46,339 nucleotides of DNA from an uncultured Gammaproteobacteria bacterium. GTDB taxonomy: Bacteria; Patescibacteriota; Patescibacteriia; UBA1558; GWA2-36-10. Position numbers and translations under genes: made by a program. This document shows, piece by piece, positions 2,083-45,176 of this stretch. The notes under the pieces were generated by a model, which ran no database searches, was not told the origin of the DNA, and saw only the letters and a list, made by a program, of their open reading frames with translations. How positions within the stretch are numbered: the first letter of the stretch is position 1; each line of letters begins with the position of its first letter. The stretch covers positions 2,234 to 48,572 of the forward strand of contig CAYUER010000004.1 of NCBI GenBank assembly GCA_964443785.1. Reading direction: 5' to 3'.

Positions 2083-2547
2083 TTAGTGCACGCGGAGTCC
2101 CAGCCTGCGGGCCGTCAGTTCTAGCGCAGTAATGGCCTCGATGCGCCAGTGTCCTTTCTCATCCTTGGTGGCCCTCAGCTTTTTGGCTGCGATCAGTCGC
2201 CGCACTTCTCGTGGCGGTAGCCACAAGATTTGTGCTGCTTCGATGCAGCTGATGTGTCCGCTGAGCTGTTCAAAGATGAGGCGGATGTTCTCGCTGATGT
2301 CATGGGGATTTACTCTCAGCCTTCGGCAAAGCTGGGTAAAATCCATGTTCTCCGGGATGATGCCATCGGACAGGATAATGGGCCTGTAGATGTCGTTGAA
2401 CACCCTGACTTCATTGTCCTGTTTGCTGCCATGTCGTGCCAGCGAGATGCTGTAGACCAGGTTCACAGCCTCTTTGAACACCTCCTTTTGGATGTCGTCA
2501 GCCTTGGCCCACCAGGACAAGCAGGGGATCTCTTGGTTCAGGTCCAT
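2083..2547 (-). CDS. hypothetical protein, high-GC cassette copy 2: unknown N-terminal domain + C-terminal excisionase/MerR-type HTH
   Basis: AAGGAGG lies 5 nt before the ATG at 2547; an in-frame GTG at 2553 is an alternative start. The C-terminal ISCIEAAQILWLPPREVRRLIAAKKLRATKDEKGHWRI fits the HTH_17/excisionase pattern. The N-terminal half weakly resembles the 103..399 product. Confidence 0.7.
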   Translation of the reverse strand: MDLNQEIPCLSWWAKADDIQKEVFKEAVNLVYSISLARHGSKQDNEVRVFNDIYRPIILSDGIIPENMDFTQLCRRLRVNPHDISENIRLIFEQLSGHISCIEAAQILWLPPREVRRLIAAKKLRATKDEKGHWRIEAITALELTARRLGLRVH

Positions 2548-2607
2548 GTTCACCTCCTTGTAGACGTTGCATTGTGTGCGGTTGCCGGGCTAAAAGAGCG
2601 GAGGCGT

Positions 2608-2636
2608 ATTATGCACTATTTTAGAGATTTAGTCAA
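2608..2636 (-). promoter_or_regulatory. sigma70-type promoter of cassette 2, -35 box inside the elp3 3' end
   Basis: Minus strand reads TTGACT (2631-2636), a 17-nt spacer, then CATAAT (2608-2613). The -35 context TTGACTAAAT matches cassette 1. Confidence 0.5.
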
Positions 2637-4226
2637 GTAGGTGCCCTGAAGTTTGTAGCCTAGTTTGCGATAGTAATTGCGGACACCAATGCCAGAAATA
2701 ACGGCTATTTTTTTTATTTTATAGTCGCGAGTGATTGTTTCAGCTTCTTGCATGAGGCGTTTGCCTAGGCCCAGGTGTTGGGTTTTGCCAATTTCATCAT
2801 CCAGATTTTCATCGTAGACTGGTATCATCTGGCCATAGACATGGAGCTCGCGCACGATAGAGGCACTTTTGAGCTCCGGAAAGATGTTATTTTTTAAATC
2901 ATGATTGATACGCAAACGCAAAAAAGCATAGACCTTGCTGCGGTCTTTATTTTCAAAGCTTAAAAATATTTCTTTACCACCACTAGCGTCATATTCGCGG
3001 TGGACCAATTCTAAATCTTTGAGTTCATATTTATCATCGCGCACTTCGCGACAGCGTAAGCACTGACAAGAGGCTCCCTGTTTTTTGAGTTCAGCTTGTA
3101 AAAATTGGCGGAGATTAGTTATTTTATTGCCAGCTACTATACTTTCTTCTGGAATATCGCGAATCAGGCGATTGATACGCATGTAGGGTGGGACTATTTT
3201 TTTGACAGCGAGGAGCAAATCCAGCAATTGTTTTTTGGTATATGGTTTATATTTTTTAGCTTTGTACCAGCCATAGAGTTCAGCAAATTCGTTGACTACA
3301 CAGGGATATATTTTGATTTGGTCAGGTTGCAAATCAGGGGAGTTGAAAACATACTGAAACATAGCCAAATCTTTTTTGGGAGTAGAGCCAGGTAAATCTG
3401 GCATATAGTGGTGATCTACTTTGAAGCCGGTTTCTTTGAGTAGGTGAGTAGCCTTGATACTTTGCTCAATACTATGTCCGCGTTTGATGAGCTCTAGTAT
3501 TTTATTATCAGTATGCTGGACACCGAGCTGGACGCGTGTGGTACCCAGTCGACGCATTTTTTTAAGCTCAGTCGGGTTGATATAGTCTGGTCTAGTTTCT
3601 AGAGTCAGACCAATGATTTTATATTTAGCAGTTTCGTTTATTTTTTGTTCTTTTTCCAAAGTAAAAGCTTTTCTTTTTTTCTTTTGGCCGAATATGTTGG
3701 CGGCATAAAAACAATCACGGATAAATTCATCTTGATAGTGAGTAGGATAGACAGACCAAGTGCCACCCAAGACCAGTATTTCTAGTTTGTCGACAGCGTG
3801 TCCATTATTTTCTAGAGCTTGGATGCGCATAGTCACCTGGCGAAAGGGATCAAAGAGATTCATCTTGGCCCGGGCGGCGGCTGGCTCATTGGACAGATAG
3901 CTTTTGGGCATGCCGACCTCTGTCGGGCAGTAGACACATTTGCCAGGGCAGACAAAGGGCTTGGTGAGCACCGTGATGACTGATACGCCTGATAGTGTTC
4001 GTACAGCTCTTTTTTTGAGTAGCTGTTCGAAGCTACTATCAGCTTTTATTTTATTTTTTTTCAACAATTGACGATAGGCAAAAATCAAGGTAGCCTTAGT
4101 ATTGGCTGGCAGTTTGCGAGAGCTAAAAGATTGGCGCAATTGTTTAGAAAAATCCAAATCAGTGGCATATTTTTGCCCCATGAGCTCCAGCACAATTTCT
4201 TCGTATATTTTATTATTTTTTTCCAT
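2616..4226 (-). CDS. elp3: Elp3-type tRNA uridine(34) carboxymethyl-forming enzyme homolog (radical SAM + GNAT acetyltransferase)
   Basis: Radical-SAM cluster motif CPGKCVYCP. ETRPD, RVQLGVQ and KxDHHYMPDLPGS blocks and the GNAT motif QHLGLGKRLM all align by eye with Dehalococcoides and eukaryotic Elp3. The ATG at 4226 (MEKNNK) is preferred over the ORF-track start at 4373; the ATG at 4178 is also possible. Confidence 0.85.
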   Translation of the reverse strand: MEKNNKIYEEIVLELMGQKYATDLDFSKQLRQSFSSRKLPANTKATLIFAYRQLLKKNKIKADSSFEQLLKKRAVRTLSGVSVITVLTKPFVCPGKCVYCPTEVGMPKSYLSNEPAAARAKMNLFDPFRQVTMRIQALENNGHAVDKLEILVLGGTWSVYPTHYQDEFIRDCFYAANIFGQKKKRKAFTLEKEQKINETAKYKIIGLTLETRPDYINPTELKKMRRLGTTRVQLGVQHTDNKILELIKRGHSIEQSIKATHLLKETGFKVDHHYMPDLPGSTPKKDLAMFQYVFNSPDLQPDQIKIYPCVVNEFAELYGWYKAKKYKPYTKKQLLDLLLAVKKIVPPYMRINRLIRDIPEESIVAGNKITNLRQFLQAELKKQGASCQCLRCREVRDDKYELKDLELVHREYDASGGKEIFLSFENKDRSKVYAFLRLRINHDLKNNIFPELKSASIVRELHVYGQMIPVYDENLDDEIGKTQHLGLGKRLMQEAETITRDYKIKKIAVISGIGVRNYYRKLGYKLQGTYLTKSLK

Positions 4227-4890
4227 GAGTGATATCAAAAAAGATTTGCAAAATGTGTATGACTCTATAGCCAAAGACTTTTCTAATACTAGATATGTGC
4301 CTTGGCAGGAGTTATCCGTTTTTATACCATATTTGCCTGACGGGGGCAAGATTTTAGACTTGGGTTGTGGCAATGGTCGCTTGTTGAAAGTGATCCAATC
4401 AGCTGGTAAAAAATACGAATATTTGGGTGTTGATTTTAGTGCTCAGTTATTAGAACAAGCTCGTCAGCAATTTCCAGATGAAAATTTTGAGCAAGCCGAC
4501 ATGAGTAAACTAGATTTTCCAAGCAATAGTTTTGATGTCATTTGTCTCGTGGCTTCTTTTCATCATCTAGATAACAAAAAAGAAAGAGAGGAATTGTTAA
4601 ATAAAATGTATTGTTGGTTGAAACCCGGTGGAGTACTTTTTATGACCAACTGGAATCTACTGCAGCCAAGGTATATCCAATATATTTTCAAAAATATTAC
4701 ACAGAAAAAATCTTGGAATGATTTTTTTATACCTTACACCTCACCAGATAGGCAGAGTGTCAATTGGCGCTACTATCATCATTTTACCAAATTAGAGCTA
4801 AAGTCTTTATTATTAAAAGCTGGTTTCAAGCTAGAACCATTGGGTCTTTACAAAAGTAAATACAATTTAAATTGTCTAGTGAAAAAATAG
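4225..4890 (+). CDS. Trm9/ALKBH8-type class I SAM-dependent methyltransferase (putative tRNA cm5U34 methyltransferase)
   Basis: Matches remembered yeast Trm9 blocks:
- VY..IA..FS.TRY.PW (here VYDSIAKDFSNTRYVPW)
- DLGCGNG
- SFHHL....ER.......LKPGG......W
- DFFIPY
- RYYHHFTKLEL
Start taken at MSDIKK (ATG 4225). Confidence 0.75.
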   Translation: MSDIKKDLQNVYDSIAKDFSNTRYVPWQELSVFIPYLPDGGKILDLGCGNGRLLKVIQSAGKKYEYLGVDFSAQLLEQARQQFPDENFEQADMSKLDFPSNSFDVICLVASFHHLDNKKEREELLNKMYCWLKPGGVLFMTNWNLLQPRYIQYIFKNITQKKSWNDFFIPYTSPDRQSVNWRYYHHFTKLELKSLLLKAGFKLEPLGLYKSKYNLNCLVKK

Positions 4891-4892: not shown

Positions 4893-5300
4893 CTACTTTA
4901 GATCTAAAAATTCTTCTTCATCATCAAAGCCATAGTCATAAACAATCTCCTCACCTTTGGAGATTTTTTTGAGGGCTTTCATCATCAGATAGCGATCATT
5001 TCTATGTTTTGGGTAATAGATATCAGCGTTGGGATTTTTTCGATCATGATTGTAGATCGATCCATAGCCAAACATGATGCAGTCTTTGCGATGAGTTTCC
5101 AAATACATTGGATAAAAGGTCAATAAGTCAGATTCATTGTCCAGATATTTCACATCTTTTTTGGATAGATAAATGACGGGGAAAGTTTCAATGATTTCTC
5201 CTTTTTTGATATCAGCGGTGGCGACCACACCTAGTCCTTTGCCGGGAGTTTCCACAATTTTGATTTTGGTTGGCGGGATGATTTTGAATTTTTTGGTCAT
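4893..5300 (-). CDS. SET-domain protein (putative protein-lysine methyltransferase)
   Basis: 135 aa: GKGLGVVATADIKKGEII, YNHDRKNPNA (NHSCxPN-like) and GEEIVYDYGF (ELxxDY-like). Confidence 0.75.
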   Translation of the reverse strand: MTKKFKIIPPTKIKIVETPGKGLGVVATADIKKGEIIETFPVIYLSKKDVKYLDNESDLLTFYPMYLETHRKDCIMFGYGSIYNHDRKNPNADIYYPKHRNDRYLMMKALKKISKGEEIVYDYGFDDEEEFLDLK

Positions 5301-5944
5301 ATTTTATTTTTAAAATGTATTTTTATATTTTCAAAAACTTGTGGCCAATTGGGGCAAGGAATGACATGGAGCTGGCTATCAGTCCTATGATGATCATAGA
5401 GAAATATTGTGCCTTCGTATCCTTTGTTTAAAAATTCCAATAGTTTAGCATTGTCATCGATGATGCCTAAAATTTGGGGGTATAGTTCTTGTAAAACTCC
5501 AGCCTTCCATTTATTGCCTTCAGGGTGCGGGACACTCATGGGTTTGCAGATAATCGGTGCCACTGGAAAACCATGTTTATCAAGCCAAATTTTTGTGCCT
5601 TCTATGACACTGGTCGGTCGGACAGTGATATAAGCTGCTACCGGTATGATTTCATTTATTTTATTTAAATAAATATTAGCATCTTCAATAAGCGGTAGAT
5701 TTTCTTGTAGCTCATTCGAGTGTATTTCTTTGTCTATCCATTGTTTGGCTTCATCGTGTTGCCAGTAGGGGACATTGCTAGTGTAGCGGTATTTTTCGAT
5801 GATTTCTTTGACTGATAAATTTTCAGGATTGCCAAAATTTTCTTGGAGTTTGGATACTAGATGACCGATAGTATAAGACAAAGTCTCATCAATATCAACC
5901 GCCAAGCCGGCAATTTCAATTTTTGGGAGAATATTTTTATTCAT
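5297..5944 (-). CDS. HAD-superfamily hydrolase (5'-nucleotidase NT5C-like)
   Basis: DxDxT nucleophile motif VDIDETLS near the N-terminus and a late IIDDN acidic motif. It has a 4-nt ATGA overlap with the downstream SET gene. Confidence 0.6.
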   Translation of the reverse strand: MNKNILPKIEIAGLAVDIDETLSYTIGHLVSKLQENFGNPENLSVKEIIEKYRYTSNVPYWQHDEAKQWIDKEIHSNELQENLPLIEDANIYLNKINEIIPVAAYITVRPTSVIEGTKIWLDKHGFPVAPIICKPMSVPHPEGNKWKAGVLQELYPQILGIIDDNAKLLEFLNKGYEGTIFLYDHHRTDSQLHVIPCPNWPQVFENIKIHFKNKI

Positions 5945-9357: not shown

Positions 9358-12300
9358 ATGTCTAATAAAATAATCCAAAGTAAAAAGCTCTGGTTTCTTA
9401 GTTTTTTAACTTTTCTGCTCCTCAGCATCAACTCTAGTCAAGCAGCTACTTCTCTAGGCTCTCGTCTTTCAGGCTACATCCTCCTCCAAGTAGAATCACT
9501 AGGAGAAGCTTGGTATATCATCCCCAAAGAACAGAAAAGAGTCTACCTCCAAAATGGTAGTGTAGCCTACCAAGCTATGCGTGAACTCTCCTTAGGTATT
9601 ACCAATAGCAATCTCGCTAAAATACCAGTAGGCATAGAACCAAGGTTTAATGATGTAGATACAGACTCTGATGGCCTCTCTGACAATCTAGAAAAAGGAT
9701 TAGATACTGATCCTAATAAAGCAGACACTGATAATGATGGCTTCTCTGATGGCAATGAAATAAAGAATAACTATAGCCCTTTAGGACCAAACAAACTAAG
9801 CTATGATAATACTTTAGTTAATAGACTAAAAGGATATATCCTTTTGCAAGTAGAAAAACAAGGACAAGCTTGGTATCTAAATCCTAAAGACGGTAAAAGA
9901 TACTACATGCAGGATGGAGAAGCAGCCTACAATATCATGAGATTCCTATCTTTAGGTATTACTAATAATAATCTTAAGTTAATACCAATTTCAGATAGAA
10001 AGTTTACTAGTACCAATAATGGTAATTCTTCTTCTGCTAATCAAGGAAACAACAACAATAATAATTCTACTTCTACACCGCCGACTACACCTCCGGGTAA
10101 TGGAAATGGCGGTGGAGGCGGTGGTGGCGGAGGTGGCTCCAATCCACCAAGCGCTGATACTCAAGTGCCCACAACACCGACTAATTTATTAAGCTCAATC
10201 TCAGGAACTCAAGTTTCTCTTTCTTGGACTGCATCTTCTGACAATGTTGGAGTGAGTGGCTATCAAATACTAAGATCAACTACTAATGGTTCTGGTTATG
10301 CTCAAATTGCTACATCCAATACCAACTCATATACCAACACAGGTTTAAGTATTGGTACTACATATTACTATGTAGTCAAAGCTTATGATGCAGCTGGTAA
10401 TATTTCTGCCAATTCTAGTCAGGCTCAAGCTACGCCAGCTGATACTGTGGCACCAACAGTACCTAGTAATTTAGTTGCTTCTGCTTCTGGATCTCAAATT
10501 TCTCTTTCTTGGACAGCGGCCACCGATAATGTAGGTGTGGTACAATACTTGATTGAGAGATCTGCTACCTCCGCTATTTCTGGTTTTACAGAAATAGCCA
10601 CTAGCACAACCTCAGTATATGTTAACACTCGCTTAGCAGTTAATTCTACTTTTTATTATCGTGTCAGAGCTCAAGACGCAGCTGGTAATATTTCAGTATA
10701 TTCATCAGTAGCCTCAGCCACCACTGATAATAGTATAGTTGTTCCAGATACTCAGGCGCCAACAGTCCCAAGTAGTCTTTCAGCTGCTGCCTCTGGCACA
10801 CAAGTTTCTCTTTCTTGGACTGCATCTTCTGACAATGTTGGAGTGAGTGGCTATCAAATACTAAGATCAACTACTAATGGTTCTGGTTATGCTCAAATTG
10901 CTACATCCAATACCAACTCATATACCAACACAGGTTTAAGTATTGGTACTACATATTACTATGTAGTCAAAGCTTATGATGCAGCTGGTAATATTTCTGC
11001 CAATTCTAGTCAGGCTCAAGCTACTGTACCAGTGCCAGTAGACACTCAAGCACCCACTGCTCCGACAACTTTGACGGCAGTAGCTGCCAGTAGAGAAGTG
11101 GCTTTATCTTGGGGTGCTGCTAGTGACAATACGGCGGTGACTGGTTATCAAATTTTACGATCAACCACCAATGGCAGTGGATATGGCTTGGTGTCTACCT
11201 CTAATACCACTGTATATGTAGATATAAATTTAACAAACGGTACTACATATTATTATGTGGTAAAAGCCTATGACGCAGCTAACAATATTTCTGCTAATTC
11301 TAATCAAGCGCAAGCTACGCCAGTCGATAGTGTGGCACCCAGTGTCCCAAGTAATTTGACAGCTACTGTTTCTGGCACACAAGTTTCTCTTTCTTGGGTA
11401 GCTTCTACTGATAATGTAGCAGTGTCACAATATTTGATAGAAAGATCAAGTAGCAATACTTCTAGTTTTACACAAATTGCTACCTCTAATACCACTTCTT
11501 ATACTAATATTGGTCTCACTAATAATAATATTTATTATTACCGCGTCCGAGCGCAAGATAGTAGTAGTAATTATTCTGGATATTCTAATACGGCTAGTGC
11601 TACCGTAGGAACTGTTGTGACTAGCAACCCTAGTATCACTGCCGTGTCTGGAAGTATCAGCTATGGTCAGACGGCGACTATTACGGGAACTAATTTTGGA
11701 TCAAAATCCCAAGTGAGCCCACTGGTGTATGATACTATGGAGTCGGGTAGCTTTAGTCCAAATTGGGGTTCAACCAATCAATTAATAGTTGGTTCAAATT
11801 CTGCTAACAAACGTCATTCCAATTCTAATTATTATGGTACGCAAAATTTCCAAGGCAATTTACGCACCTACCCCAATGTGCCACCAGACGGCAGCGGTTA
11901 TGGTGCTAATGGTTATTTTACTGGTTCAAATAGCCAATTGAGCGATACTTGGTATGGACGTTATTGGTTCAAGCTTGATAATAACTTTGATTTTGGCACT
12001 ACTGGTGAGCCACAAGGCGATGGCAACTTGGCCAATATTAAAATATTCCGTTTGTGGAACCCAGGTAACGTAGATGAAAATTTTGTTGCTGCTACCCAAG
12101 GTTATAATGGTGGTAATATAATTTATACTACCGAACAAACTTTGGAGACAACACATTATATGCCTAGCAATACTTCTGCTTGGACAAAAAATGTTTGGCA
12201 TGTATTTGATTTTGAATTTAAAGAGGGTAGTCTAAATGCTAGTAATGGTATTTTCAGAATGTGGTTTGACGGTAAATTGATTGAAGAAAACAGAGCGGTC

Positions 12301-15243
12301 ATGACTAGGCAGGACTTTGATTTATTAAAGAGACCTCTAATTCTTGGTTTTTATAATTCTTGGTCAGATGGTAATACTGATCGTGATGATTTTTATATTG
12401 ATGATGCTTATATTGATGGTACTTGGGCTAGAGTTATGTTGTGCGATCAATCAACTTGGAATGATTCAGTCAACAGACATTGTGAAATACAATCACCGCA
12501 AAATACTTGGAGCAACACTTCAATCCAGATTGCCGTGAATACTGGCTCATTTACCGCTGGTCAGACAGCCTATATGTATGTAGTGGATAGTAATGGTAAT
12601 GTAAACGCAAGTGGCTATCCAGTTGTTATTTCTGGTATTGCTACTGTCGATACTCAGGCTCCTACTACGCCAAGTAGTCTAAACGCCTCAGTTTCAGGTA
12701 CAACTATTTCATTATCTTGGACCGCCTCAACAGACAATGTTGGAGTTTCCCAATATTTGATTGAAAGATCAACTTCAGCTTCTTCTGGTTTTTCTCAAAT
12801 AGCTACCTCTAATACTACTTCTTATAGTAATAGTGGTTTAGCTAATAGCACAACTTATTATTATCGCATCAGAGCTCAAGACGCAGCTGGTAATAATTCC
12901 GGTTATTCTAGTACGGCTAATGCTACTACGGGAGTAGCTCCAGCAAGTAGCGGTAATTTGATTCAAAATAGTTGGGATTTTTCTAGTTCATCTTGGGATG
13001 CTGACGCTATTGGCACAAATCCTTGGTCACCCATTACTAACTTTACTTTTACCAGTGGTCAGAGTGATCCATTTGGTACGAACAAAGCTTTTAGGATCGC
13101 TATTCCAGGTGCTCGTGGTTGGCAACAGCGCGACTCTATGCCAGATTTGAATTTAAACTATGATGCGGTGACCGCTTCTGTTTATGTCAAATATGGTAGT
13201 GCTGCTAATTTTATCTTTGGCATCACTCAGACGGATGTCTCTTATACAGTAGGAGAGTTTGAACAGACATTTAATTTTGATGCCAATGGTGTGCCGACTT
13301 GGTCTAGTAGCAATACTCATCCGCAAGATGGGCATACTGTCACTAATGTTGGCAATGGTTGGTATAGACTCTCAGTCACCTACAATTTAGCTAGCAGAGG
13401 TATCAAAAATCATCCTTTCTCAGCTAGGGTGACTCCGGCTGGTCAATATTCTGGTGGCGCTTATGCTTATATTACTGGTTTTCAATTAGAATCAGGTACT
13501 GTAGCTACTGCCTATGTTGAGAAGCCAAGTGGCTCTGGTGATACTCAAGCGCCAAGTGCACCGGCTAATCTTTCAGTCTCAGTTTCTGGCACACAGGCAA
13601 CTTTATCTTGGAGTGCTGCTAGTGATAATACAGCAGTGACTGGCTACCAAATATTAAGATCTACTACTAATGGTGGTGCTTATACGCAAGTAAATACTGC
13701 AAACACCACGTCATATACTCATACTGGTTTGACGGCTGGTACTTATTACTATGTAGTGAAAGCTTATGATGCAGCTGGAAACTATTCAGCTAACTCTAAT
13801 CAAGTGATAGTGACTATTGCCAGTCAAGCTGATACACAAGCACCCACGGCGCCTAGTAATTTGACCGCCACTGCTTCTGGTAATCAAATATCTTTGAACT
13901 GGACTGCTTCAACCGACAACGTTGGTGTCTCTCAATATCTGATTGAGAGTTCTATTGGCGGTGGTAGTTATTCTCAAGTTGCTACCTCTAATTATACCTC
14001 TTATACCATGATGAGTTTAGCTGACAATACCGCCTATTCTTGTCGAGTCAGAGCTCAAGATGCAGCCGGTAATATGTCTCTCTATTCTAGTGTAGCTAAT
14101 GCTACGACTGGCACTGGATCAAGCTCCGGTAGTGTCAGTATTTCTGGAGTCAATGATAATACTATTTCTAATAATCAATCTATTACTATTTCTGGCAGTG
14201 GTTTTGGTACAAAAATTGCAGTTGGTGGCATAGTTGGTCCCCCAGTACTTTGGGATAATTTTGAAGATGGTACCAACGGACAATTAGTGCAAGCTACGGC
14301 CGCTAAATGGGATAGAGTGCGTAGTGATAATTTGAGTGGTCCTAGATATTATTCTGGCGCTATAGATGGCTCTATGGGCGTGAGAACTGGATCGGGCATA
14401 TACAATGGTGTGACAGCCGGCACAACTAGAACATTAATAGAAGATGATGAATTCCGCAGCTTGTATTTAGATTATTATATTAAGGCTTATAAAGGTGCCG
14501 GTTTATTACAAAGATCAAATAAACAAGTGATGATTTGGAGCGCCAATGTCGGCGTGAGTGAAGATGGCCCCAATACAGCATTTTGGCAAATAACGCAAGG
14601 TAGTGGAGAACCACCATTTGCGTTTTCTGAATATTCTTGCGCCAATGATCCTTTTTCTATAGTTTATGGCAACGGTTGGGGAATAGATGAATTTACGACC
14701 GCTCGTCATGTTCAAATCGAATATCGCCGGCCTTCAGTTGCTGGTGTTAATAATGGGTATTTACGCATGTGGTATGATGGTGTCTTAGTATCCGAGGATT
14801 CTTCTTTTGGCAGCTATTCTTGTAACCCAGATACAAATTATTTAGATAATTTATACATAGGCCATTATCAAGACATAGATTCAGCTATCGAACCAATTTA
14901 TAAGTGGATTAGTTGTCCCGGTGATTCTCGTTGTGATCAGTGTCCAGCTGGCGCTAGTGGTTGCTCTGTTAATAATGAAAATTGGCTACCTGCTCGTCAA
15001 GATGAATTTTTTTACGACAATATTTATATTGACAAATCCATTGCTAGAGTAGAAATTGGCAATGCCTCCACCTATGGCGCTTCTACTAGACGAGAAATAC
15101 AAGTACCAATGTCGTGGAATAACGGATCTATCCAATTTACTGTTAATAAAGGAGGACTGAGCAGTGGCCAGACTGCCTATATATATGTTTTAGATAGCAA
15201 TGGCAATGTTAATGCCAATGGTTATCCTGTAACTATAAATTAA
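9358..15243 (+). CDS. giant secreted surface protein (1961 aa)
   Basis: Approximate domain order:
- Signal peptide.
- An unassigned ~60-aa repeat (RL.GYILLQVE..G.AWY..P....R.Y...G..AY..MR.LSLGITN.NL..IP) at ~9460-9640 and ~9820-10000.
- The two repeat copies flank TSP3-like Ca-binding DxDxDG repeats (~9650-9790).
- An N/G-rich linker.
- Six FN3 repeats (~10150-11610).
- An IPT-like domain plus jelly-roll module (~11620-12640).
- One FN3 repeat.
- A CBM-like domain (~12945-13530).
- Two FN3 repeats.
- A second IPT-like plus jelly-roll module (~14115-15240). Confidence 0.85.
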   Translation: MSNKIIQSKKLWFLSFLTFLLLSINSSQAATSLGSRLSGYILLQVESLGEAWYIIPKEQKRVYLQNGSVAYQAMRELSLGITNSNLAKIPVGIEPRFNDVDTDSDGLSDNLEKGLDTDPNKADTDNDGFSDGNEIKNNYSPLGPNKLSYDNTLVNRLKGYILLQVEKQGQAWYLNPKDGKRYYMQDGEAAYNIMRFLSLGITNNNLKLIPISDRKFTSTNNGNSSSANQGNNNNNNSTSTPPTTPPGNGNGGGGGGGGGGSNPPSADTQVPTTPTNLLSSISGTQVSLSWTASSDNVGVSGYQILRSTTNGSGYAQIATSNTNSYTNTGLSIGTTYYYVVKAYDAAGNISANSSQAQATPADTVAPTVPSNLVASASGSQISLSWTAATDNVGVVQYLIERSATSAISGFTEIATSTTSVYVNTRLAVNSTFYYRVRAQDAAGNISVYSSVASATTDNSIVVPDTQAPTVPSSLSAAASGTQVSLSWTASSDNVGVSGYQILRSTTNGSGYAQIATSNTNSYTNTGLSIGTTYYYVVKAYDAAGNISANSSQAQATVPVPVDTQAPTAPTTLTAVAASREVALSWGAASDNTAVTGYQILRSTTNGSGYGLVSTSNTTVYVDINLTNGTTYYYVVKAYDAANNISANSNQAQATPVDSVAPSVPSNLTATVSGTQVSLSWVASTDNVAVSQYLIERSSSNTSSFTQIATSNTTSYTNIGLTNNNIYYYRVRAQDSSSNYSGYSNTASATVGTVVTSNPSITAVSGSISYGQTATITGTNFGSKSQVSPLVYDTMESGSFSPNWGSTNQLIVGSNSANKRHSNSNYYGTQNFQGNLRTYPNVPPDGSGYGANGYFTGSNSQLSDTWYGRYWFKLDNNFDFGTTGEPQGDGNLANIKIFRLWNPGNVDENFVAATQGYNGGNIIYTTEQTLETTHYMPSNTSAWTKNVWHVFDFEFKEGSLNASNGIFRMWFDGKLIEENRAVMTRQDFDLLKRPLILGFYNSWSDGNTDRDDFYIDDAYIDGTWARVMLCDQSTWNDSVNRHCEIQSPQNTWSNTSIQIAVNTGSFTAGQTAYMYVVDSNGNVNASGYPVVISGIATVDTQAPTTPSSLNASVSGTTISLSWTASTDNVGVSQYLIERSTSASSGFSQIATSNTTSYSNSGLANSTTYYYRIRAQDAAGNNSGYSSTANATTGVAPASSGNLIQNSWDFSSSSWDADAIGTNPWSPITNFTFTSGQSDPFGTNKAFRIAIPGARGWQQRDSMPDLNLNYDAVTASVYVKYGSAANFIFGITQTDVSYTVGEFEQTFNFDANGVPTWSSSNTHPQDGHTVTNVGNGWYRLSVTYNLASRGIKNHPFSARVTPAGQYSGGAYAYITGFQLESGTVATAYVEKPSGSGDTQAPSAPANLSVSVSGTQATLSWSAASDNTAVTGYQILRSTTNGGAYTQVNTANTTSYTHTGLTAGTYYYVVKAYDAAGNYSANSNQVIVTIASQADTQAPTAPSNLTATASGNQISLNWTASTDNVGVSQYLIESSIGGGSYSQVATSNYTSYTMMSLADNTAYSCRVRAQDAAGNMSLYSSVANATTGTGSSSGSVSISGVNDNTISNNQSITISGSGFGTKIAVGGIVGPPVLWDNFEDGTNGQLVQATAAKWDRVRSDNLSGPRYYSGAIDGSMGVRTGSGIYNGVTAGTTRTLIEDDEFRSLYLDYYIKAYKGAGLLQRSNKQVMIWSANVGVSEDGPNTAFWQITQGSGEPPFAFSEYSCANDPFSIVYGNGWGIDEFTTARHVQIEYRRPSVAGVNNGYLRMWYDGVLVSEDSSFGSYSCNPDTNYLDNLYIGHYQDIDSAIEPIYKWISCPGDSRCDQCPAGASGCSVNNENWLPARQDEFFYDNIYIDKSIARVEIGNASTYGASTRREIQVPMSWNNGSIQFTVNKGGLSSGQTAYIYVLDSNGNVNANGYPVTIN
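10210..10433 (+). repeat. perfect 224-bp direct repeat, copy 1 (FN3 unit)
   Basis: Base-for-base identical to 10801-11024 by manual comparison. The offset of 591 nt (197 codons) is in frame. Confidence 0.9.
10801..11024 (+). repeat. perfect 224-bp direct repeat, copy 2 (FN3 unit)
   Basis: Identical to 10210-10433. Confidence 0.9.
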
Positions 15244-15389: not shown

Positions 15390-18300
15390 ATGAATCGTCG
15401 TTTGCTTGTCACTACACTATTATTATCTGGTCTTATTTTGACCTATTTTAATATTGCTGGCGCCGCCCCCTTGGCCGATAGGCTCAAGGGCTATATTTTA
15501 TTACAAGTACAGAGCCGGGGAGAGGCTTGGTATGTCATTCCCAGCGAATCAAAGAGAACTTACTTAGCTAATGGCCAGGTGGCATATAGCATCATGTCCA
15601 AATTGGGACTAGGTATTACTAATGCTAATTTACAAAAAATTCCAGTCGGCATTGATTCTCGGATAGTGGATATTGACAGCGATGGCGATGGCTTGGGCGA
15701 CAAACTTGAAGAGGGCTTAAAGACTAATCCCAATCACACCGATAGCGATGGTGATGGTTATGACGATTTTGATGAGGTCACTCATGATTATAGTCCCTTG
15801 GGTAAGGCAAAAAATGTTTATGACCAAGCTTTGGTCAATCGTTTGAAAGGAAAAATTTTGTTGCAAGTAGAGGAGAAGGGGCAGGCTTGGTATGTGCACC
15901 CAGTCAATGGCCGCCGTTATTACATGAAAGATGGTCCATCAGCTTATGAGATTATGCGTTTCTTATCTTTGGGTATTACTAACGCTGATTTGTCCCAAAT
16001 TGCTATCTCTAGTTTTAGTGCGGGCTTGCCAAATACAGTATCTGGTGATACTCAGGCACCCACTGCACCTAGTAATTTAACAGCCACAGCTAGCTCTACG
16101 CAGATTACTTTGAATTGGTCAGCGGCGACTGATAATATTGCCGTCACTCAATATCGGATTGAGCGCTCAACTAGCGCGAATTCCGGCTTTAATTTTTTAG
16201 CTACAGTAAATATCAGAAATTATATTAATACAGGGTTAGCGGCCAATACTACTTATTATTATCGTGTCCAAGCTGTGGATGCGGCTGGTAATATATCTGG
16301 CTATTCTAATGTAGCTAGTAGCCGGACTGCTCAGGCCGTTGTCGATACCCAGGCACCGACTGTGCCTAGCAATTTGATAGCCACAGCGACCTCTACTCAA
16401 ATTAGCTTAACTTGGGTAGCAGCGACTGATAACATTGCTGTGGTCAAGTATGAGATTGAGCGATCCACCTCAGCTAGCAGTGGTTTTGCTAATATTGTCA
16501 GTGTGACTAGTAATTCTTATATTAACACTGGTTTGAGCGCGAGTACTAGATATTATTATCGAGTGCGAGCACTAGATGCGGCCGGTAATGCTTCTAGCTA
16601 CTCTAGTATTGTCAATGCTACTACGGGAGCTCAATCAACAACACCACCGCCACCAGCTAGCGACACTCAGGCGCCGACTGCACCTAGCAATTTGACAGCG
16701 AGTTCTACAGCTACTCAGGTTGTTTTGAGTTGGTCAGCTTCTAGTGACAATATAGCAGTGACTGCCTATCGTGTTTTACGTTCCAGCACAAATGGTAGCG
16801 CCTATGTCCAGATAGCAAGCTTGGGCTCTAGTGTTTATAATTATACCGATAATAATTTATCAGCTGGTACTTATTATTATGTCGTGGTGGCAGTTGATGC
16901 AGCGGCCAATGTTTCGGCCAACTCTAATCAAGCTCAAGTAAATGTCATTGGCGAAATTGCTCCTGAGCAATATGTAAATATTGAGCAACCATATAGTGAT
17001 AAAATAGTTGTGGCTAGTATTGAGGCTCCAGAAAATACGAATTATTCTTGGTATAAAAACAACACTCTGCTTGAGAGTGGTTCCTCTGCTACTACTTTTT
17101 TAGCTCATTTTGATGGGGATTTGCTTAATAACAATGAAAATCCATTGCTACAGAGTGGCATCAGCTACGCTAGCGGTAAGTTTGGTCAAGGCATGAGGGG
17201 TAAGGCGCAATATCCGGTAGCCAATAATTTAAATTTTGACGAAGGAACAATAGAATTTTGGTTGACTCTAGACCAGCCTTTAAGTAGCGGTGTGTATAAT
17301 ACCGATCCTTATGTTTTTAACTACATTAATAGTAGTAATTATCAGAAGATAATGATGAACATAAAGGCTGATATCGGTGCCCTAGTTTTTACAGTACACA
17401 GTGGTAGCGCTGATGTTGACTGGAGTGAAGCCGTGCAGATAAATACTCTATACAATGACACTCCGGCCAATCAAGCATTTTTCGTGTCTATGACTTATTC
17501 CAAGTCTACCAATAAATCCAGCCTATATTTAAATGGTTTTAAAATAGCTCAAGATGACTTTTCTGGCTTTAATTTTGATCCAGCCAATAGTAATTTGATC
17601 ATTGGCAATAACTATGCAGTCATTGATGAATTTAGGATACTGAATAAATCTTTGTCAGCAGAACAAATTATGCATGATTATACTCGTGGCAAAGCATTTG
17701 AGTCGAATGAAGTGTATTATGCTGGCACCAAAAATAATAATGATAATTTGCAATTAAGTATTAATTTGGCGGGTGCTAATTATACAGCTAACGCCTTGGT
17801 AAAAAATCCAAAGATTACAAATATATCACCAGATGCTTATGTCTTGTCAAATCGTAGTAGCATCAATTTGAGTTTTAATTCTGTTAGCTCGGCTACTTGT
17901 CGTTATGGTAAACAGGCGGATAATTTTAGTGATTTACCATATGCAGTGAGTGGCAGTGGTACTAGCCATAGTATTAGCTATGTGGTGGGCAGCACAGTAT
18001 CTTCCCATGATTTTTATATCAAATGTCAATCCGACTCAGATGGAGATGACTATGCTTTTTATAGGCGCCTGAGAGTTTTGCCAAGCTTAGATAACAACTG
18101 GCCAAAAATGGGCGCTATTATTTGGGGTAATAATATTAGCAGTAGTGAGGTGACCACTTTAGCTAAGTATGATTTATTGAGTTTAGCCAAAGATAACATC
18201 TCTCGATCTAGCCTGTTAAATCAGATAAAATCGATCAATGAAAAATTGATATTACTACCCTATGTCAATGCTCCTGATAATAATATCAGCTATGGCATCA

Positions 18301-19328
18301 GTAGCTTTGCGCACTATGATTTTTACGAAAAATTATCTGATAGCTGGAGATTAAGAAATAAAGATGGTCAATATATCACCAATTTATATTTCCCCAATGT
18401 CATGAATTATAATTTGTTGACTAGCGTGCCTTGGGCAGAGACCTTGTCTCAGCATATAGAGGATACAATTATCAGTCGTGGTGATTGGGATGGAGTTTGG
18501 TATGATGTAGTAGATACAAATTTTTGGTGGATTTATGATTATCAACTAAATCGTTTTACTCAATATCCAGACTTTGATTTAGACGGAGTCAATGAGGATT
18601 TGAACAATACAGCTGATTATAATAAAGCTAGAAATATTTGGGCTGATGGCTTAGCTCAAATCATGACCCTAACCAGACAAGCAATGGGTCCGGATTCTAT
18701 CATCATTGGTAATAATGGCGACATCAATCCGCAGCTATATAATGGTAAAATGTGGGAGCGTTTTTTATACTATCATGACACCACTTTTTCTAATAATTTA
18801 TCAGCTTATTTGAGCATCAATAATAGTAATAGTTTTGCTTATTGGAATAGCAATACAGCCTCCCCTCATTTTAATTGGAACTTATTTGAAATGAATACTT
18901 TCACCAATTATCAGAGACATCGTTTGGGCTTGGCTGCCAGCTTGCTTGGTGGAGTGTATTACAACCCATCGAATCGCAATAATTATAGACAGCTTTATTG
19001 GTACGATGAATTTTGGGTGGATTGGAGCACCGGTGAAACTAGTAATACTGCTAGCAATGGCAGAGGTTATTTGGGTCAGCCAGTTAGCGAAGCTTATTCA
19101 ATCGGCACTGATCTCTGGCGTCGTGATTTTCAGCACGGCATCGTGGTAGTCAATAGCAGCGCCAGTTTAGCCAATATTAATTTGGGCGACACATTTAGAC
19201 ATATCAAGGGTTCGCAAGATGCCATTGCTAATTCTGGCCAATCAGTTTCAGAGCTGGCTCTACCAGCCTATGATGCTAGGATATTATTGACCACCAAGAC
19301 CAATGATCCTCTGATAAGTGTTCACTAA
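15390..19328 (+). CDS. giant secreted surface protein (1312 aa)
   Basis: Approximate domain order:
- Signal peptide, then the same repeat-TSP3-repeat N-terminal module as the upstream gene.
- Three FN3 repeats (DTQAPTAPSNLTA...YYYRV.A.DAAGN).
- A Laminin_G_3-type block (EGTIEFWLTL, LYLNGFKIAQ, IDEFRILNKSLSAEQI).
- A C-terminal ~400 aa with a GDWDGVWYDVVD motif reminiscent of GH114/GHL TIM barrels. This last assignment is a low-confidence guess. Confidence 0.85.
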   Translation: MNRRLLVTTLLLSGLILTYFNIAGAAPLADRLKGYILLQVQSRGEAWYVIPSESKRTYLANGQVAYSIMSKLGLGITNANLQKIPVGIDSRIVDIDSDGDGLGDKLEEGLKTNPNHTDSDGDGYDDFDEVTHDYSPLGKAKNVYDQALVNRLKGKILLQVEEKGQAWYVHPVNGRRYYMKDGPSAYEIMRFLSLGITNADLSQIAISSFSAGLPNTVSGDTQAPTAPSNLTATASSTQITLNWSAATDNIAVTQYRIERSTSANSGFNFLATVNIRNYINTGLAANTTYYYRVQAVDAAGNISGYSNVASSRTAQAVVDTQAPTVPSNLIATATSTQISLTWVAATDNIAVVKYEIERSTSASSGFANIVSVTSNSYINTGLSASTRYYYRVRALDAAGNASSYSSIVNATTGAQSTTPPPPASDTQAPTAPSNLTASSTATQVVLSWSASSDNIAVTAYRVLRSSTNGSAYVQIASLGSSVYNYTDNNLSAGTYYYVVVAVDAAANVSANSNQAQVNVIGEIAPEQYVNIEQPYSDKIVVASIEAPENTNYSWYKNNTLLESGSSATTFLAHFDGDLLNNNENPLLQSGISYASGKFGQGMRGKAQYPVANNLNFDEGTIEFWLTLDQPLSSGVYNTDPYVFNYINSSNYQKIMMNIKADIGALVFTVHSGSADVDWSEAVQINTLYNDTPANQAFFVSMTYSKSTNKSSLYLNGFKIAQDDFSGFNFDPANSNLIIGNNYAVIDEFRILNKSLSAEQIMHDYTRGKAFESNEVYYAGTKNNNDNLQLSINLAGANYTANALVKNPKITNISPDAYVLSNRSSINLSFNSVSSATCRYGKQADNFSDLPYAVSGSGTSHSISYVVGSTVSSHDFYIKCQSDSDGDDYAFYRRLRVLPSLDNNWPKMGAIIWGNNISSSEVTTLAKYDLLSLAKDNISRSSLLNQIKSINEKLILLPYVNAPDNNISYGISSFAHYDFYEKLSDSWRLRNKDGQYITNLYFPNVMNYNLLTSVPWAETLSQHIEDTIISRGDWDGVWYDVVDTNFWWIYDYQLNRFTQYPDFDLDGVNEDLNNTADYNKARNIWADGLAQIMTLTRQAMGPDSIIIGNNGDINPQLYNGKMWERFLYYHDTTFSNNLSAYLSINNSNSFAYWNSNTASPHFNWNLFEMNTFTNYQRHRLGLAASLLGGVYYNPSNRNNYRQLYWYDEFWVDWSTGETSNTASNGRGYLGQPVSEAYSIGTDLWRRDFQHGIVVVNSSASLANINLGDTFRHIKGSQDAIANSGQSVSELALPAYDARILLTTKTNDPLISVH

Positions 19329-23705: not shown

Positions 23706-24311
23706 TTATTTTTTGATAAAAATCAAGCCAAAGTGGTATGGCCCAGCCTTAAATTGTTGCACTAGCTCTAGACTGAGTTGATTGGCAATATCTATTATTT
23801 TGTTGGGTTGGGCCAATCTTTCTTTGGCTGGTCCAAAGGACAGATCATTATCCGCCCAATCAATGACTAGCAGTTTGGCTCCGGCTTTTAACAAACGAGT
23901 AGCCTCTGATAGTATTTCAAAATGTTTTTGGGATTGATACAAGACATTGACCAAGATAGCGGCGTCGAGGCTTTGATTGTTGATCTTGGTTGCGCCAATA
24001 ATTTCTAAATTGCTCCAGACGGTTTTGATATTATTGAGACCAGATATTCTCGCTTTGGACTCTAGCTCTGATAAGATATTTTTGACAACATCGACAGCAT
24101 AGACTTGGCCTTGGTCGCCGACTAGTCGAGCAGCCTGCAATAAAAATAAACCACCACCAGCTCCTAGGTCGCCGACCATGTCGCCTTTTTTGAGCTGCAA
24201 AAAATCAGTCAATATTTTTCCAGCATCCATCAACTCACTTTTTCCACCAACATTTTTGGGTGAAAAATTTTGCTTAGTGCTTGGTGTTTGTGTTTGGAGT
24301 AATTGGTCCAT
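23706..24311 (-). CDS. class I SAM-dependent methyltransferase
   Basis: Motif I VGDLGAGGG and a typical Rossmann-fold layout. ATG at 24311 (MDQLLQ) is preferred over the TTG at 24356. Confidence 0.7.
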   Translation of the reverse strand: MDQLLQTQTPSTKQNFSPKNVGGKSELMDAGKILTDFLQLKKGDMVGDLGAGGGLFLLQAARLVGDQGQVYAVDVVKNILSELESKARISGLNNIKTVWSNLEIIGATKINNQSLDAAILVNVLYQSQKHFEILSEATRLLKAGAKLLVIDWADNDLSFGPAKERLAQPNKIIDIANQLSLELVQQFKAGPYHFGLIFIKK

Positions 24312-24378
24312 ATTTTTTCTATCTTTATTATACCAGAAAATATGATTATCCGCCAAGGGTTTTTTTTGTTTTCTATAG

Positions 24379-24429: not shown

Positions 24430-24504
24430 GGCCCTATCGTCTAATGGTTAGGACACCAGGTTTTCATCCTGGCAATCGGGGTTCGATTCCCCGTGGGGTC
24501 ACCA
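24430..24504 (+). tRNA. tRNA-Glu (anticodon UUC), CCA encoded
   Basis: Manual cloverleaf:
- acceptor GGCCCTA/TGGGGTC
- D stem GTCT/GGAC
- anticodon stem CCAGG/CCTGG with loop TTTTCAT
- T arm CGGGG-TTCGATT-CCCCG
- discriminator A followed by CCA. Confidence 0.9.
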
Positions 24505-24953: not shown

Positions 24954-24997
24954 AAACCAGCCCAGCCTCTTAGCTAAGAGGCTGGGCTGGTTTTTTT
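24954..24997. terminator. bidirectional intrinsic terminator
   Basis: CCAGCCCAGCCTCTTA/TAAGAGGCTGGGCTGG stem (24957-24972 pairs 24975-24990), flanked by an A-run and a T-run. Confidence 0.8.
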
Positions 24998-26348
24998 AAC
25001 GATTAATATAGTTTTGGTAGTCACTAGTATTTTGCCATTTGGCAAAGGGGATAGTCGGGTGGACAGTTTTACCGCCAAAGCGGATAGACTGTTTGATGGC
25101 TTGCTCAGAGTAGCCACTATAGCTATAGGCATTGACTAGGACGGCCCAGTCGCGAGCATTGATTTGGTAGCTACCTAGATTATTCTTGAGCCAGTTTTTT
25201 AAATAAGCAGAATTTTTTGACTCTAGAGTATTGGGGTTTTTGAGACGGGCCAGCACTTCGTTGATAGTGCGACCATAGCCATAGGGGTTGTACTGGTGGT
25301 CAATTTCTTCTTGGTCAGGATAGCCATCGTAGTCACTATCTAGACTATTGTTGTATATTTTTTGACCAGCGACTTGGGGAGCGGTGACAGATTGTTGTTT
25401 TGGTAAAGTAGTGAAACTATAGCCAGTGGCTTCTATCTTTTTATTGTACAAGCCTTTTTCCACAACGATTTTATAATAATAAGTAGTATTCGGATTGAGC
25501 TTGGTCAAAAAAACTTCGTGTTCACTTCTAGGGGTGGCACTGGCTACTATTTTTTGCCTGAGACTATTTGGCTTAGTGCCATAATAGATAGTGCTTTGGG
25601 TGACATAGTTGCTTGACCAGGTCAAGAAAGCACTAGAATCACTGATTCTATTGGTGTCCAATTGCAAGGGTTTGATATTGCTGATCGCTAGGTTAGAGCC
25701 ATTTTGTGCGCCATGAGAAGTAGTAAAAATTAAATATTTTGTCTCGCTATTTTTATCTTTATCAACTGCTGTGATTTCCGCAGCGTAGCGAGTATTGGCT
25801 TTGAGTTTGTAGATATAATTAACATGAGAAGTCACATAAGAATTGTAGCTGACACTAGAGCGTTTTGTTTGCTCCATTTCCCAGTAAGTGATTTTACCTC
25901 TGGTGACTTCGTCCGTGTCCCAAGAAATAGCTACAGCATTACCAGTAGTTTGTAATATTTTGTATTTAGTAATTTCTGGTTTTTGGTTGTCAGTCATATT
26001 CTTGGTAGAAAAAGATTGGACAAAAGTTTCTACCTTGTGGCCAGAATTATCCTCAGCTACTATTTTGTAATAGTAGGTTTTATTTTTTTCCAAGCCAGTC
26101 AAAACACTTTCATGAAGATAGTCATACACTCCATAACCCATGCTCATAGTCAAATTATCAGCAGTGAGGCCATAGTGGACTGAGCCCTTGGTGGCTTGGG
26201 TAGTGTACCAAGAGACATTGATCATTTTGTTGCGGGGATTGTAGACCTTGATATTGGAGATGACTACGGTTTCTGCTCTACCAAAAAAAGGCAGGATTAG
26301 ACCAGCGAGGATAATGATTATGAGGCTGTACTTACCTAGGTATTTCAT
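24996..26348 (-). CDS. secreted FN3-repeat protein (450 aa)
   Basis: Signal/anchor peptide. Three FN3 / purple-acid-phosphatase-N-like repeats (NVSWYT...G.V.YG...YYYKIV). A TSP3-like DSDYDGYPDQEEIDHQYNPYG motif is shared with the two giant proteins. The C-terminal domain is unassigned. Confidence 0.75.
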   Translation of the reverse strand: MKYLGKYSLIIIILAGLILPFFGRAETVVISNIKVYNPRNKMINVSWYTTQATKGSVHYGLTADNLTMSMGYGVYDYLHESVLTGLEKNKTYYYKIVAEDNSGHKVETFVQSFSTKNMTDNQKPEITKYKILQTTGNAVAISWDTDEVTRGKITYWEMEQTKRSSVSYNSYVTSHVNYIYKLKANTRYAAEITAVDKDKNSETKYLIFTTSHGAQNGSNLAISNIKPLQLDTNRISDSSAFLTWSSNYVTQSTIYYGTKPNSLRQKIVASATPRSEHEVFLTKLNPNTTYYYKIVVEKGLYNKKIEATGYSFTTLPKQQSVTAPQVAGQKIYNNSLDSDYDGYPDQEEIDHQYNPYGYGRTINEVLARLKNPNTLESKNSAYLKNWLKNNLGSYQINARDWAVLVNAYSYSGYSEQAIKQSIRFGGKTVHPTIPFAKWQNTSDYQNYINR

Positions 26349-26415: not shown

Positions 26416-27084
26416 TTATAGGCTTTTTTGAGAGATTACGGCTTTTTTCTCTATTTTAAGATAGTGGATACTCTTACCAGCTTTGAGGTGTTTTTCTTCA
26501 AAACAAGTCTTTATTTTTAACTCGGGCTTTAGATTTTTTTGTTTATAAATATCAACTATTTTTTTATTGATTTTCAAACCTTTTTCTTTGGCGGATTTTA
26601 TGGCAAAGTTGAATAATTTTTTATCATCAGTTTTGAGATGAATTAGGGCTTTATTTTTTAAAATTAAATCGTACTTATCTAAAAATTTTTTTGATACCAA
26701 TCTTTTTTTGGCTTGTTTTTTGCGGGGGTAAGGATCAGGGAAGGTGATCCAGATCTCATCGACTGATTGTGGGGGAAATATTTTTTCCAAAAAATCAACC
26801 TGAAAGCGGACGAATAATAAATTTTTTATTTTTTTGTCCAAAGCTTTTTTGGCGCCATGCCACAATCTCTCGCCTTGGATATCGATGCCAATATAGTTGG
26901 TGCTGGGATTTTTCTCAGCCAAAGCCAAGCTATATTCACCTTTGCCGCAGCCCAATTCTAAAATTATTTTATCACTTTGTTTGATAAATTTTTTTAATTT
27001 TTTGGCAAAATCTTGATCGCCAAACTCCAATACATTGGTAAATGATTTGAGCTCAGCAAATTTTTTCATTTTTTGTCTAGCCAT
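26416..27084 (-). CDS. trmB: tRNA (guanine46-N7)-methyltransferase
   Basis: ILELGCGKGEYSL, YIGIDI and ITFPDPYPRKKQAKKR blocks. Confidence 0.85.
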   Translation of the reverse strand: MARQKMKKFAELKSFTNVLEFGDQDFAKKLKKFIKQSDKIILELGCGKGEYSLALAEKNPSTNYIGIDIQGERLWHGAKKALDKKIKNLLFVRFQVDFLEKIFPPQSVDEIWITFPDPYPRKKQAKKRLVSKKFLDKYDLILKNKALIHLKTDDKKLFNFAIKSAKEKGLKINKKIVDIYKQKNLKPELKIKTCFEEKHLKAGKSIHYLKIEKKAVISQKSL

Positions 27085-28244: not shown

Positions 28245-28251
28245 TATTTTT

Positions 28252-45174: not shown

Positions 45175-45176
45175 CA

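Follow-up and report, generated by a model that had tools for sequence, protein, structure and literature searches.

A head-to-head Elp3 and Trm9-type gene pair and its predicted role in bacterial wobble-uridine modification

The question raised by this locus is whether some bacteria modify the wobble uridine (U34) of their tRNAs by chemistry of the Elongator type. It arises from two genes lying head to head on contig CAYUER010000004.1 of assembly GCA_964443785.1, which is deposited as an uncultured Gammaproteobacteria bacterium and is placed by GTDB among the Patescibacteriota, the group also called the candidate phyla radiation (CPR). The stretch analyzed, called the window from here on, has a length of 46,339 nucleotides (contig positions 2,234 to 48,572), and the positions in Table 1 are counted from its first letter. 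One gene encodes an Elp3, the other a class I S-adenosylmethionine (SAM)-dependent methyltransferase resembling Trm9, and we put at roughly three in four the probability that the two together make 5-methoxycarbonylmethyluridine (mcm5U) at position 34, as a minimal bacterial Elongator-type wobble-uridine pathway. A two-step pathway had been proposed in an earlier note made from the letters and open reading frames (ORFs) of this DNA, and every in silico test agrees with an Elp3 and Trm9-type pair acting in one pathway. Both genes lie where that note had put them, and all the motifs it quoted are found in the translations at the expected places.

The comparison material comes mainly from scanning genomes, one for each species, with a pattern derived from the methyltransferase and blind to Elp3. 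The scan returned 67 loci, which extend to about 10 kb flanks; these, and loci retrieved separately, are cited below, where needed, by L numbers.

Identity of the two proteins

The minus-strand protein scores 550.2 bits against the NCBIfam model TIGR01211, for which the cut-off is 350, with an alignment over positions 37-522 of the 522 in the profile. It is matched as well by Pfam Radical_SAM and Radical_SAM_C. The Pfam GNAT models match weakly (E ~1e-3); the alignment to solved Elp3 structures spans the entire domain. Matches in the Protein Data Bank (PDB) run end to end, with 418 bits to archaeal MinElp3, 384 bits to Dehalococcoides mccartyi Elp3 (DmcElp3), and about 330 bits to eukaryotic Elp3. 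The iron-sulfur, zinc and acetyl-CoA residues are all present, and the pocket residues K147, K269, E460, H462, and Y518 are the equivalents of DmcElp3 K77, K193, E386, H388, and Y441 (residues per PMC6367351). The zinc cysteine triad is conserved in bacterial and archaeal Elp3 and missing in eukaryotic Elp3 (PMC6367351). By family score and residues, then, the gene is the full-length Elp3 that the earlier note took it for, with predicted 5-carboxymethyluridine (cm5U34) synthase activity.

Elp3 residue 72 aligns with DmcElp3 residue 2, so that 71 residues come before the DmcElp3-equivalent start, and the first 72 residues hold 15 K/R against 8 D/E. This bears out a further point of the note, that the protein has an N-terminal extension of archaeal and eukaryal character. 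The extension is conserved as protein in most CPR loci, where tblastn alignments begin at query residues 1-12. In MinElp3, a basic region of amino acids 1-75 binds tRNA, and DmcElp3 is without such a region (PMC6367351). The extension in the window fits the MinElp3 region by length and basic composition.

For the plus-strand protein, the main point of interest is whether it is a Trm9 in particular or one more member of a very large superfamily. Pfam Methyltransf_25 and Methyltransf_11 match it at E ~1e-23. Because neither Pfam nor NCBIfam contains a Trm9-specific model, we built a hidden Markov model (HMM) from 108 fungal Trm9 sequences. That HMM scores the window protein at 87 bits over residues 6-208 and the two other class I methyltransferases of the window at 3.5 and 4.3 bits, and among the 1,939 ORFs of the 67 related loci plus the window it matches only 66 target methyltransferases. 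A profile of 14 CPR homologs, searched against 177,635 PDB sequences, has its top match in Yarrowia YlTrm9 (5cm2_Z) at 92.3 bits over the full length, followed by the next match at 72.5 bits. In a single-sequence PDB search a two-domain plant phosphoethanolamine methyltransferase had outranked Trm9 by summed score; the profile search favored Trm9. The AlphaFold2 model has a predicted local distance difference test (pLDDT) score of 92.8; Foldseek bears out its fold and puts Trm9 first among the matches. NCBI names such proteins "class I SAM-dependent methyltransferase", and the JGI/KEGG pipelines label some bacterial members TRM9 or ALKBH8.

The remaining evidence for identity lies in the active site. 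Alanine substitution of R29, D72, H116, W145, W168, R241, Y243, or N271 inactivates yeast Trm9 (ScTrm9; PMC4678810). The window equivalents are, in the same order, R23, D70, H114, W143, Y171, R182, Y184, and N214. Across 108 CPR sequences identity is at least 97% at each of these positions other than 171, where W stands in 71, Y in 31, and F in 6. The arginine of the N-terminal signature (R23) is shared by 107 of the 108 CPR proteins and by 108 of 109 fungal Trm9 proteins, the positions of R182 and Y184 are invariant in the CPR set, and the position of N214 is N in 105 of its members. The equivalence of N214 with N271 is the least certain of the eight, because HMMER placed the residue two columns off. 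All eight are also conserved in 148 cluster representatives of the wider family. Profile search, fungal HMM, the eight residues, and the AlphaFold2 model with Foldseek all point to the same place, and on these comparisons the plus-strand gene is specifically Trm9-type and groups with Trm9, as had been proposed, rather than with generic class I enzymes.

There remains the matter of Trm112, which the eukaryotic model behind the earlier note would bring in as the partner of Trm9. YlTrm9 meets Trm112 through a hydrophobic core of V59, F78, V102, A110, P112, and F116 (PMC4678810). At the V59, F78, and A110 positions the window protein has K, E, and D. These three positions are at least 96% hydrophobic in fungi versus 3-8% in CPR, where the residues are K/R, D/E/N, and D/N/S; the methyltransferase next to Elp3 in Dehalococcoides has K, E, and P. 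Hydrophobic residues at the V102 position drop from 94% of fungal to 41% of CPR sequences, and S takes the place of the R115 hot spot in CPR. A motif scan of the window and the related loci turned up no Trm112-like ORF, which is weak evidence. Since charged residues replace the hydrophobic docking patch, we predict that the bacterial methyltransferase probably works without Trm112, and on that prediction the enzyme is Trm9-like but is not to be filed as a Trm9-Trm112 holoenzyme. The partner supposed by the eukaryotic model is in that case probably unneeded.

Table 1. Positions of features in the window, with loci cited for comparison
Feature	Position	Strand	Remark
Elp3 gene	2616..4226	-	536 aa + stop; predicted radical-SAM/GNAT tRNA U34 carboxymethyl (cm5U) synthase
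Elp3 basic N-terminal extension, residues 1-71	4014..4226	-	without counterpart in DmcElp3
Radical-SAM [4Fe-4S] motif CPGKCVYC (C93, C97, C100)	3927..3950	-	aligned to DmcElp3 C23/C27/C30
Elp3 acetyl-CoA pocket	K147 3786-3788; K269 3420-3422; E460 2847-2849; H462 2841-2843; Y518 2673-2675	-	
Zn-binding CxCxxC (C387, C389, C392)	3051..3068	-	bacterial/archaeal Elp3 type; translation + DmcElp3 alignment
Lysine acetyltransferase (KAT)-domain acetyl-CoA motif QHLGLGKRLM	2751..2780	-	
CATG	4224..4227	.	overlapping divergent ATG start codons of Elp3 and methyltransferase genes
Trm9-type class I SAM-dependent methyltransferase gene	4225..4890	+	221 aa + stop; predicted tRNA (cm5U34)-O-methyltransferase
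N-terminal Trm9 signature VYDSIAKDFSNTRYVPW	4255..4305	+	contains Y12, R23 (ScTrm9 Y18, R29)
SAM-binding motif I DLGCGNG	4357..4377	+	
D70, acidic SAM-ribose ligand	4432-4434	+	ScTrm9 D72
H113-H114, catalytic and uracil-recognizing histidines	4561..4566	+	ScTrm9 H115/H116; roles from PMC4678810
WNLLQ, W143...Q147	4651..4665	+	ScTrm9 W145, Q149
DFFIPY, Y171	4720-4737	+	Y171 = ScTrm9 W168
RYY, R182-Y-Y184	4768-4776	+	ScTrm9 R241, Y243
N214, proposed reader of uracil O2/N3	4864..4866	+	ScTrm9 N271; L-INS-i alignment
HTH_17/excisionase-like ORF	2083-2553	-	directly downstream of Elp3
SET-domain protein, putative lysine methyltransferase	4893-5300	-	135 aa; converges on Trm9-like gene, 2-nt gap
HAD/NT5C-like gene	5297-5944	-	upstream of SET gene, 4-nt overlap
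tRNA-Glu(UUC)	24430..24504	+	sole Rfam match in window; plausible substrate
RNA-modification genes and second methyltransferase	534-995, 26416-27084, 27192-28758, 44638-46279, 23706-24356		
Fibronectin-III / Ig-like repeat proteins	9358-15243, 15390-19328, 24996-26348		1,961 aa, 1,312 aa, 450 aa
Loci with CATG start overlap	L001-L012, L014-L024, L026-L030, L065		
SHMT/FolD examples	L008:2237-3499, L064:845-1681; also L071		

Shared start and conserved pairing

The mechanical ORFs for the two genes, 2616-4373 on the minus strand and 4102-4890 on the plus strand, overlap, and each has a TTG start. The true starts are the ATG at 4226 for the Elp3 gene and the ATG at 4225 for the methyltransferase gene, chosen on the basis of homolog lengths (221 aa) and of how the N-termini align in over 60 related loci. 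With these starts the initiation codons share a CATG palindrome and overlap by two bases, hence there is no intergenic DNA at all, and each gene's promoter and ribosome-binding signals must sit in the other gene's first codons. The first codons of both genes are AT-rich around the CATG. A promoter and terminator scan around it gave nothing beyond 9-of-12 matches, which occur at background frequency. Among the 37 window genes examined, Shine-Dalgarno-like motifs are nearly absent upstream, with weak ones at QueH and QueA only, and the upstream regions are simply A/T-rich. The missing motif at the pair is therefore uninformative, and the host organism appears to initiate translation without Shine-Dalgarno pairing.

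The CATG overlap is kept in 29 of the 31 closest loci, which make up the window's clade, despite diverged flanks, and it ties the two genes into a single compact unit there. In loci more distant than this clade the spacer between the genes is mostly 0-266 nt. The pairing itself extends much further. Elp3 is divergently adjacent, directly upstream of the methyltransferase, in 64 of the 67 loci, and since one of the others ends at a contig edge, the count is 64 out of the 66 loci that are informative. The two exceptions, with no Elp3 within 6 kb, are metagenome-assembled genomes (MAGs), one of Peregrinibacteria and one of Peribacteria. Sequence identities of Elp3 and of the methyltransferase to the window pair co-vary with r = 0.96 over 58 loci. 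With a divergent Elp3 in that many informative species loci the pairing is conserved far beyond chance, and co-occurrence in relatives, whose absence the earlier note had named among the results that would overturn its proposal, is what was found.

The loci with a named phylum are nearly all labeled CPR/Patescibacteria, and the closest relatives for which a phylum is given are Patescibacteria/CPR MAGs. Many of the related records (L001, L003, L005, L007, and others) are titled "uncultured Gammaproteobacteria bacterium", one is titled "uncultured archaeon", and another "Oceanicoccus sp."; their pairs are 40-95% identical to the window pair. These titles are probably placeholders or errors. They could be taken, together with the fact that the best NCBIfam matches of the methyltransferase are BioC and UbiE, to mean that a generic UbiE/BioC-like enzyme lies beside Elp3 by chance or mistaken annotation, or that the locus is archaeal or eukaryotic contamination. 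That explanation is effectively refuted. The library scores are far under their cut-offs, at 60 bits versus 185 for BioC and 59 versus 216 for UbiE (CmoA, also considered, has 31 versus 193), the match is Trm9-specific by profile and HMM, the pairing is kept in 64 species, and the window is plainly bacterial, encoding RlmH, NusA, TrmB, TsaD, TsaE, ValRS, PilB, FtsH, S1, MurI, GyrA, RuvB, QueH, and QueA.

The bacterial Elp3 of Dehalococcoides mccartyi has been crystallized, and we asked what lies beside Elp3 there. The DmcElp3 sequence, taken from the PDB alignment, served to retrieve Elp3 proteins of Dehalococcoidia/Chloroflexota type, together with the contigs that encode them. A Trm9-like methyltransferase of 224 aa is encoded divergently from Elp3, with a spacer of 43 nt, in D. 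mccartyi CP019867.1, and the divergent pair is found in three further Dehalococcoidia-type genomes, making 4 of 4 informative loci. The fungal Trm9 HMM gives the partners 57-67 bits and the CPR profile gives them 85-112 bits, and the catalytic residues are kept in both of those aligned to the family (L068, L069). DmcElp3 (PDB 5L7J, 5L7L, 6IA6) is like the window protein in being a bacterial Elp3 with CX3CX2C spacing, the same pocket residues, and a divergent Trm9-like neighbor. It is unlike it in having no N-terminal extension, at 459 aa versus 536 aa, and its partner belongs to a more divergent branch, with 67 bits on the fungal HMM versus 87 for the window protein. The pair noted earlier is real, and it is confined neither to CPR nor to an extended Elp3, since the short DmcElp3 is paired as well.

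The predicted pathway and its alternatives

Archaeal Elp3 and Elongator are both known to form cm5U34 from SAM and acetyl-CoA, and family membership with conserved catalytic residues leads us to infer the same first step here. The stand-alone Elp3 would bind the anticodon stem-loop of U34 tRNAs, aided by its basic N-terminal extension, cleave SAM at its [4Fe-4S] cluster, and use acetyl-CoA within its KAT domain to place a carboxymethyl group on C5 of U34. In the second step the Trm9-type enzyme would move the methyl group of SAM onto the cm5U carboxylate to give mcm5U34, which may later be 2-thiolated; Trm9 homology, an intact cm5U/SAM pocket, and near-obligate gene linkage all suggest this step. 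Trm9-family enzymes yield mcm5U in yeast, in humans (ALKBH8), in Arabidopsis, and in Haloferax (PMC4678810, PMC6144793, PMC3177185).

We lean, by a little, toward a wider form of the proposal, which is that much of CPR/Patescibacteria and Dehalococcoidia would make mcm5U34, perhaps mcm5s2U34, by a self-sufficient, Trm112-independent module of two enzymes inherited as a unit. This would be the simplest known Elongator pathway, and it might replace MnmE/MnmG in reduced genomes.

As to which tRNAs would be modified, the gene for tRNA-Glu(UUC) had been pointed out in the window as that of a plausible substrate. The gene is there. It lies 20 kb off and is not linked to the pair; across 60 loci no tRNA gene is found repeatedly in the pair's neighborhood, and we drop this argument. 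As a substrate tRNA-Glu(UUC) is plausible by analogy, given that DmcElp3 binds Dehalococcoides tRNA-Glu(UUC) in vitro (PMC6367351).

Several observations weigh against the mcm5U34 proposal. Pfam and NCBIfam give the methyltransferase generic class I matches only. The Foldseek margin of Trm9 over 3sm3 and METTL6 is almost nil, so that result is consistent with Trm9 and not discriminating. The position of the essential W168 is Y in the window protein. The predicted independence from Trm112 is read from sequence, in the window and the related loci. At least three loci have the methyltransferase with no adjoining Elp3 (L066, L067, L073/L074), and some family members are fused C-terminally to another domain, either a WecG/TagA glycosyltransferase (five 50%-identity clusters, P0406, P0447, P0456, P0472, and P0483) or a NUDIX hydrolase (two clusters, P0491 and P0500), with loci L070-L074 covering the fused forms. 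The WecG fusion in L073/L074 is unpaired.

On account of the unlinked members and the fusions, the Trm9-like family is maybe not restricted to a cm5U role. These, with the generic library matches, are the case for an enzyme derived from Trm9 that acts on another substrate, such as some other nucleoside with a carboxyl group, a carboxylate on a protein or small molecule, or an intermediate of the cell envelope, and that adjoins Elp3 through shared SAM use or regulation. We think this unlikely for the paired enzyme, in that all the residues for which contact with the carboxylate of cm5U and with the uracil ring has been proposed in Trm9 are retained, the fused forms included, divergent adjacency holds at 64 of 66 loci and across two phyla, and in L071 the NUDIX fusion keeps its Elp3 partner.

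The other difficulty is with the end product. Yeast trm9 mutants accumulate 5-carbamoylmethyluridine (ncm5U; PMC3110198), and Haloferax trm9 and trm112 mutants show no cm5U (PMC6144793), so what Trm9 acts on in vivo is not entirely settled even for these organisms. Chemistry after cm5U being incompletely understood, one may suppose that Elp3 makes cm5U and the pathway ends elsewhere, in an ncm5U-type or novel nucleoside, with the Trm9-like step transient, accessory, or directed to a different atom. This we regard as very unlikely, as Trm9-family enzymes give mcm5U wherever they have been tested (see above) and the active-site residues are unchanged in the window methyltransferase. The mcm5U34 pathway is accordingly the reading with which we compare the known systems below.

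Surrounding genes, known systems, and significance

RNA-modification genes are abundant in the window, namely RlmH, TrmB, TsaD, TsaE, QueH, and QueA, and an uncharacterized second class I methyltransferase is directly upstream of tRNA-Glu(UUC). RuvB and QueH are also near Elp3 in Dehalococcoides (L068, L069, L077). Serine hydroxymethyltransferase (SHMT) in 36 loci and FolD in 27 loci are found within ~6 kb of the pair in relatives, not in the window. SHMT is just beyond Elp3 in the inspected loci L008 and L071, and in L075 the genes after Elp3 are those for PMM, MetK, and AdoHcy hydrolase. The recurrence of SHMT and FolD may be lineage synteny or may reflect a link to one-carbon and SAM supply.

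The HTH_17-like ORF downstream of Elp3 is a strong compositional outlier, with GC content of 0.55 and third-position GC (GC3) of 0.72, where the window has about 0.40. At 103-399 on the minus strand is a weak paralogue, likewise GC-rich, and between the two ORFs lies a low-GC block with RlmH, ArsR, and SdpI (534-2020). Both ORFs fall into one blastp cluster, with members in 17 sources, which are 16 related loci and the window. The GC-rich 2000-2600 region was considered as a structured RNA and rejected, as Rfam matched only the tRNA in the window. On the other side of the pair, SET-domain proteins are unusual in bacteria. The SET and HAD/NT5C-like genes fall outside the 25 most widespread ORF clusters of the related loci, hence they are not widely conserved neighbors. 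The three fibronectin-III / Ig-like repeat proteins are probably surface proteins; the 1,312-aa one also has Laminin_G_3 and GHL15 domains.

Compared with eukaryotic Elongator plus Trm9-Trm112 or ALKBH8-TRMT112, the pair shares both catalytic families, their presumed order (cm5U to mcm5U), a basic N-terminal extension on Elp3, and Trm9 active-site residues that are identical save W/Y at one stacking position. It differs in having no Elp1/2/4/5/6 partners, in the bacterial/archaeal zinc-cysteine motif of Elp3, and in a methyltransferase without the hydrophobic Trm112-docking patch and without RRM or AlkB domains. In the eukaryotes studied Elp3 and Trm9 are separate genes, whereas in the window they are physically coupled.

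The archaeal systems of Haloferax volcanii (HVO_2888/HVO_1032) and Sulfolobus solfataricus come closer, in that Elp3 stands alone and archaeal MinElp3 is the best PDB match of the window protein. For Sulfolobus, clustering of the genes for Elp3 and a Trm9 homolog is on record (PMC2584109), and Haloferax has been shown to contain mcm5U, with Trm9-Trm112 (PMC6144793). The Haloferax Trm9 needs Trm112 in vivo, whereas the bacterial proteins look Trm112-independent, and the host of the window is bacterial. We found no description in the literature of a head-to-head CATG start overlap for archaea. The bacterial MnmE-MnmG (+ MnmC) and CmoA/CmoB systems also target C5 of U34, presumably for the same decoding purpose, by unrelated enzymes and chemistry; no mnmE or mnmG was seen in the 46 kb window.

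How much of this is new can be stated fairly closely. Bacterial Elp3 is already known, from the DmcElp3 structures and from the family name at NCBI, as is the archaeal clustering. A 2020 review assigns to Bacteria only cmnm5U, mnm5U, and nm5U (the carboxymethylaminomethyl, methylaminomethyl, and aminomethyl uridines), and confines cm5U and mcm5U to archaea and eukaryotes (PMC7694415). A 2017 review holds that bacterial homologs of Trm112-dependent methyltransferases are not detectable (PMC5372719). Full-text searches on CPR, Dehalococcoides, Elongator, and MnmE/MnmG turned up no paper linking bacterial Elp3 to a Trm9 homolog, in so far as the texts were available to them. The novelty that had been suggested for the gene pair therefore holds for the bacterial link, within that literature, and does not extend to gene clustering, known in Sulfolobus, or to the label TRM9/ALKBH8, which pipelines already attach to members. 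What is new is probably the occurrence of a known two-step pathway in another domain of life, in a form that is compact and probably does without Trm112.

The pair contradicts the review statement on bacteria and is partly anticipated by automated annotation, and naming the methyltransferase Trm9-like corrects a routine annotation gap in NCBI. Dehalococcoides mccartyi is cultivable, and because its Elp3 is also already in purified form, the mcm5U prediction is directly testable. Purification of DmcElp3 has been carried out in several laboratories (PMC6367351). If the prediction is true, bacteria of at least two phyla use Elongator-type wobble chemistry, and bacterial Elp3, so far studied only as a structural model, would acquire an in vivo role. 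The family would also supply mechanistic and structural studies with a Trm9 that is free of Trm112 by nature, and its distribution would bear on how the pathway spread among bacteria, archaea, and eukaryotes.

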